A DNA stretch of 50,681 nucleotides from Promethearchaeota archaeon (GTDB lineage Archaea > Asgardarchaeota > Lokiarchaeia > Sigyniarchaeales > SOKP01): NCBI GenBank assembly GCA_048940445.1, contig JBHLON010000026.1:1-50681 (forward strand), in the 5' to 3' direction. A model generated the notes under the pieces. It did no database searches, had not been told where the DNA came from, and saw only the letters and a list, made by a program, of their open reading frames with translations. The position numbers and the translations under genes were made by a program. Every line of letters starts with the position of its first letter. Position 1 is the first letter of the stretch. This document shows positions 25,861-36,878 of the stretch, piece by piece.

Positions 25861-27018
25861 CTAAACTCTACGTCCGGATAAGATATTCCCTATCATTTTG
25901 AGAGAGCCTATGAAGCCTCTTTTTTTCATCATCATTTTCGCATACATTCTCCCAGAGGTCTTAGGTGGCGAGACATTCTTTCTTTTTTTATAAAGTTTCA
26001 TAGCTTTCATTCCGCAAGTTACAACGCAGTTTCCACATCCAATGCACCTATCCAAATTTACTACTGCTTTGTCGCTCTCCAGTGTGATAGCGTCCATTTG
26101 GCATCGTTTCACACATGTTTCACATCCATTGCAGAGTTCCGGATTCGATTGTGCATAAAAATTGGAAGAATAATATTCAGCCGGTTTAGGAAACTGTTTC
26201 GCCATTTGTAGAACACCACAGCAACACCCACAGCAGACACACATAAAGGAAGGATTTTTACTATTTTCTGGTTGTAGTACAAAACCTTCCTTTTGAAATT
26301 TTTTTAGAATTTCAAACATTTCTTCTTTAGAAACTTCTTTTCCTATTCCATCTTTAATTCGTCTATCCGCAGCATCATTGAACATAACACAGCACCGACG
26401 AATATTTGAAAGTGCACAAGGTTCTTCAAGAACATCATGTTGTTCACGGCATACACAGTTTATTATTGCGATTTTGTCAACTTTTTTTGTGATAATCTCT
26501 CGTATATTATCATAAGTACTGACAGTGTATTCTGGAGAAAGGCTTTTTTCTACGGGAATCGTATGCATTTGGCTGGTTTTCTTTTTATTATGAAATTCTT
26601 CATAAAACACATCAAGTGAGTAGTCTTTAGAGAGTTCGGCAAACTCTTTTGTAATCTTCCCTAATTGATATTCAAAAATACCAATAGCCCATGGAATTAG
26701 TCTATAGCGTCTTCTATTATGTTTTTTATCATATACTGAGCCTCCTCCCTGAATTGCTCCTTTTTCATTCAAATTATTTAACAACTCCTCCAGTCTCTCT
26801 TTTGATATTGAGATACCGCCATTTATAACCCGTTTATAAATCTTATCCAAAGGTTCTGGAAGAGCACTTAAATGGATCGCAATCGCAGCTTCTTCTGGTG
26901 TGAAAAGAAGTTTCAATATTTTTATCTCTAAACCAGATTTATGTGCAGGGAAATCAATGGGCATACGAGTATCAATTTCTCTATGAAGGTTCTTATAAAC
27001 CTCATCACTACTTTGCAA
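25861..27018 (-). CDS. 4Fe-4S dicluster protein (N-terminal HTH-like region, Cys-rich middle, C-terminal ferredoxin)
   Basis: CVCR, CVCCGCCC, CNGCETCVKRC, CIGCGNCVVTC. Confidence 0.9.
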   Translation of the reverse strand: MQSSDEVYKNLHREIDTRMPIDFPAHKSGLEIKILKLLFTPEEAAIAIHLSALPEPLDKIYKRVINGGISISKERLEELLNNLNEKGAIQGGGSVYDKKHNRRRYRLIPWAIGIFEYQLGKITKEFAELSKDYSLDVFYEEFHNKKKTSQMHTIPVEKSLSPEYTVSTYDNIREIITKKVDKIAIINCVCREQHDVLEEPCALSNIRRCCVMFNDAADRRIKDGIGKEVSKEEMFEILKKFQKEGFVLQPENSKNPSFMCVCCGCCCGVLQMAKQFPKPAEYYSSNFYAQSNPELCNGCETCVKRCQMDAITLESDKAVVNLDRCIGCGNCVVTCGMKAMKLYKKRKNVSPPKTSGRMYAKMMMKKRGFIGSLKMIGNILSGRRV

Positions 27019-27302: not shown

Positions 27303-27764
27303 ATGAAAACGATAACCTTAACGATATTTGCCCCGGATCCCGAAAAAACACACTCTAAAGGTGTAAAATATGTCCTTGAGATGGATGAACGTGGATCGAT
27401 CATTGATGCTTTAAGTAAAATTGACAAAGATATGATAGAACATCCAGATAGATCCGTATTTCCCTTATACGAAGGCTTAATTCATAGTTATCTCCAACTT
27501 ATTTGGGATGCTGAAGAGAATAAGATTTATGATGATTGTGGTGTTGATGCATATGGGCCGAACAAGGAATTTATGCCTTTAAGGGACGATGTTGATTTCA
27601 ATTTACTTCCAGATTCTGATATTACAATTATAGTTCATGCTGATTGATGAGCTGACAATATGAAGGAACGTTTAGATTTTGGAGCATTTAAGAGAATCAT
27701 TCGAGAGAAATATGGAAAAGATAATGAAACATTTACTCACTATTTTAGTTTAATAAGAAAATAA
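27303..27764 (+). CDS. Candidate selenoprotein (153 aa, beta-grasp/ubiquitin-like) with two adjacent in-frame UGA codons; minimal ORF ends at 27647
   Basis: ...VHAD-TGA(27645)-TGA(27648)-ADNMKERLDFGAFKRIIREKYGKDNETFTHYFSLIRK-TAA(27762-64), followed by a SECIS-like hairpin. The CDS itself is confident; readthrough is inferred. Confidence 0.65.
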
Positions 27765-27773
27765 ATTAAAAAG

Positions 27774-27817
27774 TTGGAATGAATTCTTTCAAAAAAGCTT
27801 AGTGAAAGAACGACCAT
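27774..27817 (+). ncRNA. SECIS-like cis-acting RNA element (eukaryote/Loki type) in the 3' UTR
   Basis: TGG-A-ATGA-A-TTCTTTCA-[AAAAAGCTTAG]-TGAAAGAA-C-GA-CCA: AUGA/GA core, perfect 8-bp upper stem, A-rich apical loop, short TGG/CCA lower stem. Confidence 0.7.
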
Positions 27818-27983
27818 AGGATTGTGTCCTATAATATAAGCACATTTAATGAATAACCCCATCTCTGCGACTTTTTCTTTAATGGAGTAATTATAATAAC
27901 ACATTTGCTGAAAAAGTTTAATTATAATAGCTAATTATAAATATTGAATCAAAAAAATAATATTAAAAAAGGGGTATATTAAC

Positions 27984-28442
27984 GTGAAAGTACTTATTGT
28001 ATATTATTCAAAATATGGAAATACAGAAAAAGTGGCTAAATTAATTGCAGAAGGTATTACTTCTACTAATAGTCATGAAGTAATAATTGAGAACGTCAAA
28101 GATGTAAAGCTTAAAAAAGAAGCTTCCTATGATTTAATTTTAATGGGGTCTCCGGTTCATTTTGGAAAACATGTAGGGGCGATAAAGAAATTCATTGATA
28201 AACTTCCAAAATCTCAATTAAAGGCAAAAACTTATGCTGTATTTGATACCTATATAAAGACTGATTTTGAGAGCGGTGTTAAAAAGATGGAGAAACAGAT
28301 AAGTGAAGTGATGCCTGATTTAACAAAAGCAAGTTCTGGACTATCTATAAAAGTGGAGGGTACAGGGACTTCGAAAGGGCCTATAGTGAATGAAGAGCTT
28401 CCAAAATGTAAAGAATTCGGAATCAAATTAGCACAAGGATAA
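27984..28442 (+). CDS. Flavodoxin
   Basis: IVYYSKYGNTEKVA, GSPVHFG, AVFDT. Confidence 0.92.
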   Translation: MKVLIVYYSKYGNTEKVAKLIAEGITSTNSHEVIIENVKDVKLKKEASYDLILMGSPVHFGKHVGAIKKFIDKLPKSQLKAKTYAVFDTYIKTDFESGVKKMEKQISEVMPDLTKASSGLSIKVEGTGTSKGPIVNEELPKCKEFGIKLAQG

Positions 28443-36252: not shown

Positions 36253-36296
36253 TTGTATACATTAAATTTCAAATAATAATTTTTTTTTGAGTAAAA

Positions 36297-36878
36297 ATGA
36301 GTGAAGAAGTGAATACAAAACACCTAAATAAGGAAATAATTGATGGGAATCTTTTAAGTCCTTTACCTGTAATTTTGGTTGGGGCAAATGTACATAATAA
36401 GCCTAACTATTTGGTAATTGGATACAGTTGTCCATTTGTTTTTGGTAGATATATTTTTTTCAGCTTATATCCAAAACGTTATACGACAATTGGAATTCAT
36501 GAGAATATGACTTTTAGTGTAAATATCCCTTCAGAAGACCTCGTGGAAAAAACTAATATTTGTGGGAGTAAATCTGGGCGAGATATTGATAAAAGTACCC
36601 TTTTTAACAATTTTTATGGAGAATTAAAGACAGCGCCAATGATTCGTGAGTGTCCAGTTAACGTAGAATGTAAAGTACATGAAATCCTCGATTATGGTGA
36701 TGGTGAAGGAATTATTGGCAAGGTAATTAAATCGTATGTTAATCCGAAGTATATGATTAAAGAAAATGGTAAAATGAAGCTCGATTGGCGGAAGATTCAT
36801 CCGATTATCTGGACTACGGGGGGTGACTTTAATTATTACCGTCTCGGGGAACGAATCATAACCGAGGATGAGACATAA
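36297..36878 (+). CDS. Flavin reductase family protein (flavoredoxin-like)
   Basis: PLPVILVGANV..KPN, FSVNIP, CGSKSG, APMIRECPVNVEC. Confidence 0.92.
   Translation: MSEEVNTKHLNKEIIDGNLLSPLPVILVGANVHNKPNYLVIGYSCPFVFGRYIFFSLYPKRYTTIGIHENMTFSVNIPSEDLVEKTNICGSKSGRDIDKSTLFNNFYGELKTAPMIRECPVNVECKVHEILDYGDGEGIIGKVIKSYVNPKYMIKENGKMKLDWRKIHPIIWTTGGDFNYYRLGERIITEDET

Follow-up and report, generated by a model that had tools for sequence, protein, structure and literature searches.

What reads two stop codons that stand side by side within a gene? The question is raised by a locus in a 50,681-nt stretch of DNA from a Promethearchaeota archaeon (hereafter the window, meaning the whole stretch that was analysed; it is contig C44 of a 3.6-Mb assembly, 93% complete). 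Here the coding sequence of a candidate 153-residue selenoprotein (27303-27765, forward strand; ATG at 27303, stop codon TAA at 27763-27765) carries two adjacent in-frame TGA codons (27645-27650) that would specify Sec115 and Sec116 in the motif HAD-U-U-AD. An initial annotation of this DNA had reported the in-frame TGA pair, and the frame is indeed open past it until the TAA; it had also placed a compact hairpin of the eukaryotic SECIS type behind the gene, and its coordinates for the AUGA, the stem, the AAAAA loop, the C-GA-C, the flanking TGG/CCA and the following hairpin are all correct, base for base. We conclude with high confidence that 27775-27816 is a Lokiarchaeota-type SECIS in the 3′ UTR, that both UGAs are probably decoded as selenocysteine, and that the hairpin behind it (hairpin 2) most likely belongs to the same functional RNA. 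The SECIS is a new member of a kind known since 2016, and so it is not new as such.

The AUGA motif can be read from the sequence at 27779-27782, beginning 14 nt past the TAA and 134 nt downstream of the TGA pair. A lower (C) stem of three base pairs, UGG/CCA (27775-27777 with 27814-27816), leads into a K-turn-like core, whose 5′ side (27778-27782) consists of unpaired A-A-U at 27778-27780 followed by G27781 and A27782, and whose 3′ side is G27812 and A27813 within the C-GA-C at 27811-27814. From what is known of K-turns and SECIS elements, G27781·A27813 and A27782·G27812 would form sheared pairs. Above the core, the 5′ strand of the upper stem, UUCUUUCA (27784-27791), pairs perfectly over 8 bp with the 3′ strand, UGAAAGAA (27803-27810, then C27811); the stem is uninterrupted and A/U-rich, with a single G-C pair. 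Its ninth position, beside the core, is an A27783·C27811 mismatch, so that the upper part comprises one mismatch and eight Watson-Crick pairs (27783-27791 with 27803-27811) closed by an apical loop of 11 nt, AAAAAGCUUAG (AAAAAGCTTAG in DNA letters; 27792-27802). Hairpin 2 (27816-27832) has the stem AUAGGA/UCCUAU and the loop UUGUG (in DNA, ATAGGA-TTGTG-TCCTAT), which a U·G pair may reduce to a UGU triloop. RNAfold predicted both the SECIS and the hairpin that follows, with a folding energy z-score of -1.38 at the SECIS site; this is ordinary for DNA of 31% G+C, and thermodynamics alone therefore proves nothing. Oligo-T can act as an archaeal terminator, and a T-rich run, TTTTTCTTT (27872-27880), about 40 nt past hairpin 2, is, going by its letters only, a possible transcription stop.

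We compared the element with other SECIS elements using a covariance model (R1) built from 35 elements belonging to VhuD, VhuU, PrxL and one further gene; its training alignment (A2) comprised 30 elements of VhuD orthologs from related genomes and five from this genome, and contained no sequences from the family of the window's gene, which we call the UU family. When the whole 50.7-kb window was searched with R1 unfiltered, the top match was 27771-27837, at 38.2 bits (E 8.4e-8). The same model gave 37.9 bits for the element of a paralog on contig C63, and 44.2 bits for the SECIS of a UU-family member from another taxonomic family in the class. The runner-up in the window, 36268-36323 on the forward strand, reached 18.6 bits (E about 0.014); there AAUAAU replaces AAUGA, the AUGA is absent and no companion hairpin follows, and we regard it as probably a chance match. 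A whole-genome R1 search, in which only 150 of 7684 candidates were scored, did not recover the element in the window, and default filters also lost most UU-family elements; we relied instead on the unfiltered search of the window and on a genome-wide pattern scan. Rfam returned no SECIS family match for the whole window at gathering score, nor for 27650-27950 at E up to 10. This null was not counted against the SECIS reading because standard models miss Loki elements: the text of Mariotti et al. (2016; PMC4989117) describes their failure on Loki genes.

The pattern scan found the same geometry at further sites in the genome: behind three HdrA-VhuD pairs (contigs C84, C134 and C100), a VhuU gene (C47), a PrxL fragment (C28), two small membrane ORFs (C80 and C27), one further ORF (C20) and the C63 paralog of the window's gene. 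The similarity to the genome's other SECIS elements on which the initial annotation had staked its proposal is thus present, at the 38.2 bits given above. Several of these sites merit description in their own right. The ORFs on C80 (~6160, reverse strand; locus L014) and C27 (~8692, forward strand) are small single-pass membrane ORFs followed by a lokiSECIS and a companion hairpin; past the hydrophobic helix they carry the motifs ...SSGE-U-PCSG... and ...DGEG-U-GC..., and they may together make up a further undescribed family of selenoproteins, one with a UxC motif. The element on C20 (~890, reverse strand) is SECIS-like, with an R1 score of 30.8 bits, and lies behind a zinc-ribbon-like ORF (CPFCG...CQGC) that contains several in-frame TGAs, a U-N-U motif among them; the position of the second CxxC past the first TGA suggests read-through. 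At C47 (VhuU), C100 (VhuD) and at loci L030 and L036, the stop codon is a UGA within the AUGA of the SECIS core, and the coding sequence extends into the SECIS.

Conservation in relatives places the element on firmer ground. In an alignment of the SECIS region from 30 relatives (A1), a SECIS follows the stop codon in 30/30, each of them with a TGA pair, and compensatory changes are present; where the TGA codons are retained, the element is retained with them. The AUGA is invariant in all 30, as it is in all the VhuD, VhuU and PrxL SECIS elements, and the dinucleotide 3′ of the stem is GA in 28 of the relatives and AA in two. The three-helix structure pairs 91.7% of cells in A1, against 83.8% in shuffles, and falls to 42-54% when the partners are slid; its covariation score was reached by none of 500 shuffles. 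The covariation among orthologs that had been named as a check was found, with ten pairs changed on both sides, counts which overstate independence as the relatives are kin. The lower stem (columns 5-7 with 45-47) is 90% paired, with both-side changes in two of its three pairs (UA/GC/AU); helix II, the upper stem, is 93% paired, with both-side changes in four pairs; and hairpin 2 (columns 48-53 with 57-62) is 90.6% paired, with four of its six pairs changed on both sides. Half of the relatives, and several other SECIS elements in this genome, have no pair at the ninth position of the stem. RNAalifold, applied to the relatives, predicted both hairpins independently, and sequence conservation stops just past hairpin 2; this leaves a conserved RNA block that essentially coincides with the interval first marked.

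Hairpin 2 lies directly after the SECIS, as first noted. It is by no means peculiar to this gene, being a recurrent companion of SECIS elements across the class. Under strict requirements (4 bp or more, two or more G-C pairs, and a start no further than 8 nt from the GA), a hairpin stands behind 9/10 type I SECIS elements of this genome, against a background of 9.3% at random genome positions (binomial p about 5e-9), and six of the ten have GC in the hairpin loop, against a background of 1.2%. The tenth element, on C20, has a weaker hairpin, GGGAU-UGCG-AUCUU, and CCACUU-GCA-AAGUGG stands behind the type II SECIS of SelD. In the VhuD orthologs, all 30 of them, the hairpin is AUGG-(G/A/U)(A/U)GC(A/U)-CCAU and lies 3-4 nt past the GA. 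Stems of unrelated sequence occur in other families of the class (AUCC/GGAU, CUCUU/AAGAG, UCCUA/UAGGA, AGCGAU/AUCGCU, AGGGU/ACCCU), again with GC in the loops. The usual loop is NGC or NNGCN; the window's own loop, UUGUG, departs from the GC form. The text of Mariotti et al. (2016), of Huang et al. (2024) and of a 2026 review makes no mention of a hairpin after the SECIS.

The placement of hairpin 2 relative to the SECIS differs between families. In other families of the class an outer helix encloses the SECIS hairpin and hairpin 2 together, and its sequence varies by genome (CUCGAUGG/CCAUCGAG, AUAUAUGG/CCAUAUAU or CUGCCUA/UAGGCAG); VhuD elements of the window's own family have an outer helix of 4 bp with A-U to U-A swaps. 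The general architecture is thus that of a three-way junction branching at the G·A core. No conserved outer helix enclosing both hairpins was found in the alignment of UU-family relatives; there hairpin 2 stands in tandem, abutting the 3-bp lower stem. As the topology is a tandem here and a branch of a three-way junction elsewhere, the case for one simple structural role is weakened.

This variation bears on the strongest alternative, in which the SECIS is real and hairpin 2 is a separate element of 3′-end protection or termination with no part in Sec insertion. The UU-family arrangement suits such an element, as the hairpin lies outside the SECIS helix in a simple tandem, and so do the T-rich run about 40 nt downstream here and the T run directly after the hairpin in the C63 paralog. 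We nevertheless judge this alternative unlikely. Hairpin 2 keeps a tightly constrained distance to the 3′ GA, at 1-4 nt in UU-family elements and mostly 3-4 nt in those of VhuD; the NGC loop motif recurs on stems that are unrelated in sequence; in VhuD and other families the hairpin lies within the closing helix, a position ill-suited to a free-standing 3′-end hairpin; and a T run directly after it is absent from most copies, for which reason we rejected hairpin 2 as a terminator. Membership of hairpin 2 in the same functional RNA as the SECIS is the reading that we carry forward.

The gene served by this RNA has close company. Homologs occur in 137/161 genomes of the class, practically all with exactly two in-frame TGAs, and the TGA pair occupies the same alignment position in all of them, down to 23% identity. 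In an alignment of 29 sequences (A3) the UU column is invariant, and coding is conserved past the TGA pair. Members in other taxonomic families (23-29% identity) keep the pair, mostly within a GCUU motif. In a phylum-wide sample of 161 genomes the family was seen only in two families of this class, with two TGAs in every detected member, and no Cys form was found in the 133 sampled phylum genomes outside the two carrier families. The 153-residue protein had no family match in Pfam or NCBIfam. An AlphaFold2 model computed from A3 (pLDDT 89, pTM 0.87) consists of a β-grasp domain followed by two helices, with the UU pair just past the last strand, and the best PDB matches found by Foldseek were SAMP1, Urm1 and MoaD, all weak (E about 6e-3). 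Published Asgard selenoproteins, as set out in the text of the literature, comprise seven families, SelD, FrhA/VhuU, HdrA, FrhD/VhuD, PrxL, AhpF-N-like and DsbA-like; the UU family appears neither among these seven nor among the eleven archaeal selenoprotein families given in the text of Huang et al. (2024; PMC11227280) and the 2026 review. It is apparently an undescribed family of Sec-Sec proteins, present in most genomes of the class.

Two features of the family and its surroundings can be noted beside this. In A3, the ortholog group of the window's gene combines HAD-UU with a conserved Cys in ...DDCGVD... (residue 80), and the paralog group and the members in other families have G-C-UU and lack a Cys at the residue-80 site; judging from the aligned sequences, the position of the Cys that partners the Sec pair seems to have shifted between UU groups. 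The upstream neighbour (25861-27018, reverse strand) is a divergent protein of 385 residues with two 4Fe-4S motifs and weak winged-helix matches, and the downstream neighbour (27984-28442, forward strand) is a flavodoxin. We considered a conserved gene neighbourhood and rejected it, since a flavodoxin lies downstream in only 1/35 related loci.

Can one element serve two consecutive UGAs, as the initial annotation suggested it might have to? Each UU gene has one SECIS, and in two genomes that SECIS is shared: at loci L027 (genome G134) and L029 (genome G055), tandem UU genes lie about 20 nt apart, the GCUU type first and the HADUU type second, and the sole SECIS stands after the second, so that one element would then serve four UGAs. 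Both observations support decoding of the pair by a single element, and service of several UGAs by one element has been published for HdrA-VhuD. The distance from the UGAs to the AUGA is 131-134 nt in 27/30 relatives and 116-124 nt in the other three, and the distance from the stop codon to the AUGA ranges from -1 to 21 nt. We considered whether fixed UGA-SECIS spacing is a requirement and rejected this, as the UGAs of VhuD and HdrA lie hundreds to thousands of nt away and three relatives differ; the constant distance probably reflects shared descent free of indels. In several UU genes the stop codon is itself a TGA, located 0-12 nt before the SECIS or within its AUGA. These stop TGAs agree with the rule of a minimal UGA-SECIS distance, by which UGAs near the element are stops, proposed in the text of Mariotti et al. 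(2016).

The genome also encodes the means of inserting selenocysteine. Contig C61 carries SepSecS (388.7 bits; 60330-61487, reverse strand) and, about 5 kb away, a SelB/EFsec-like gene (233.7 bits; 66168-67055, forward strand); a PSTK-like gene is present in the assembly, and the SelD gene carries an in-frame TGA. The machinery cluster spans 60330-67055 of this contig, partly within locus L001. Beside SepSecS lies a tRNA-like gene of 87 nt (61736-61822, reverse strand) with the anticodon UCA in the loop CUUCAAA; it scored 23.6 bits against the Rfam tRNA-Sec model, under the threshold of 47, and its T arm is odd, and we treat it as a candidate tRNA(Sec). A tRNA-Sec search of the assembly at E up to 0.001 returned nothing, and the UCA candidate came from a looser search; ARAGORN called only 13 tRNAs in the genome.

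This weak tRNA(Sec) call is one of two points that would favour read-through of the UGA pair by other means, through near-cognate Trp or Cys insertion or a suppressor tRNA, stimulated by the conserved RNA; the other is that the phylum-wide sample yielded no Cys-containing homolog with which to calibrate the site. We consider this explanation very improbable, as elements of the same form lie behind VhuD, VhuU, PrxL and SelD in this genome, the Sec machinery genes are present, and other UU-family TGAs near a SECIS act as ordinary stops. Least credible of all is a true double stop that completes a product of 114 residues, with an untranslated region or a separate small gene downstream and a chance hairpin in AT-rich DNA: standard gene calling does close the ORF at 27647, an ATG follows soon after the TGA pair (27660-27662) and the folding z-score is weak, but protein conservation continues in frame across and past the TGA pair in all homologs, to 23% identity, chance would not be expected to place a double stop at one fixed codon position in over 150 genes, each with a SECIS-like element behind it, and the covariance model match has an E of about 8e-8.

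Decoding of both UGAs through a Lokiarchaeota-type SECIS would then proceed as follows. The core would fold as a K-turn, with UGG/CCA as the C-stem, A27778-A27779-U27780 as the bulge, and the tandem G·A/A·G pairs with A27783·C27811 beside them. The folded SECIS would recruit archaeal EFsec with Sec-tRNA(Sec), either directly or via a K-turn-binding protein, and the ribosome would read both UGAs, 134 nt upstream, as selenocysteine, giving a β-grasp protein with a Sec-Sec pair. Hairpin 2 starts at the end of the 3-bp lower stem and therefore could stack on it, in which case it may take the place of the long helix I found in eukaryotic elements. Its loop, most often NGC or NNGCN, may also, or instead, be where a SECIS-binding factor makes contact. 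A more ambitious version of this scheme, which we offer tentatively and hold as possible though somewhat doubtful, is a two-part signal, in which the K-turn hairpin and a required companion hairpin with an NGC-type loop, which stacks on or branches from the short lower stem and docks a SECIS-binding factor, together drive efficient back-to-back Sec insertion into an obligately Sec-Sec family of ubiquitin-like β-grasp proteins.

Relative to the literature searched, what is new here is the Sec-Sec β-grasp gene served by the SECIS, and the companion hairpin. The text of Mariotti et al. (PMC4989117) names archaeal SECIS recognition as an unanswered question; a conserved second module whose loop motif recurs provides something concrete to mutate and a bait for pull-down. 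The companion hairpin would also sharpen SECIS search models, which are now limited to the core, the upper stem and the apical loop; models without it can miss selenoproteins like the one in the window.

How does this RNA compare with systems already known? At the level of general RNA folds, a K-turn consists of a canonical stem, a 3-nt bulge, tandem G·A/A·G pairs and then a non-canonical stem, and a k-junction is a K-turn elaborated into a three-way junction. At the sequence level the window's element resembles a K-turn in its UGG/CCA stem, its AAU bulge and its GA facing GA, with a lower stem that covaries. The elements of VhuD and of other families resemble a k-junction, in that hairpin 2 branches off the non-bulged strand just past the G·A pairs, with an outer helix around the whole; the window's element differs, as it has no conserved outer helix and its hairpin 2 abuts the 3-bp stem.

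The upper stem of a eukaryotic SECIS is about 11-12 bp long. The window's element shares with eukaryotic SECIS elements the AUGA...GA core, for which tandem G·A pairs and a K-turn are expected, the unpaired adenines at the start of the loop, the location in the 3′ UTR and the action at a distance on upstream UGAs. It differs in its shorter upper stem (9 positions), in a lower stem of just 3 bp, and in having a plain three-base bulge in place of a larger internal loop. The text of published searches reports SBP2 as not found in Lokiarchaeota and Asgard archaea.

The resemblance to lokiSECIS is closer still. In the text of Mariotti et al. (2016; PMC4989117) these elements are defined by an AUGA directly before a 9-bp stem, a GA (rarely AA) after it, and a loop of 11 nt whose first five bases are mostly A and whose last is an ultraconserved G, usually preceded by A. 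Every published feature is present here, with the AUGA, a 9-position stem, an 11-nt loop of the form AAAAA...AG, and the GA. The initial proposal of a eukaryote-like SECIS with a short stem is therefore borne out, and can be made more precise, as the element fits the lokiSECIS consensus feature by feature (PMC4989117). Huang et al. (2024; PMC11227280) state in their text that lokiSECIS elements form a type I eSECIS-like structure, and give for frhA the lower-stem pattern [U/C]GG_C[C/U][A/G], which the window's UGG_CCA fits. As in other lokiSECIS loci, the element lies a few nt past the stop codon of a gene with a conserved in-frame UGA, in a host genome with Sec machinery, of which the tRNA(Sec) is represented only by a sub-threshold candidate. 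The difference lies in the gene served, which is outside the published Asgard families, and in its two UGAs, which are adjacent.

Euryarchaeal SECIS elements, of Methanococcales and Methanopyrus, likewise occupy the 3′ UTR of archaeal selenoprotein genes, and methanogen VhuD elements with AUGA and GA/AA are described in the text of Mariotti et al. (PMC4989117). The GAA_A bulge and the run of G-C pairs in the upper stem that characterise the euryarchaeal elements are absent here. For the Sec pair itself, our literature search for published natural Sec-Sec motifs found only the algal PDI_e selenoprotein with its GUGUU motif, reported as the first case of natural consecutive Sec codons (Jiang et al., 2020; PMC7539508). 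Like the window's gene, it is a natural gene with two consecutive Sec codons and a SECIS in its 3′ UTR; it is a eukaryotic thioredoxin-fold protein, whereas the protein described here is an archaeal β-grasp, with a UU pair that does not vary across an entire class.
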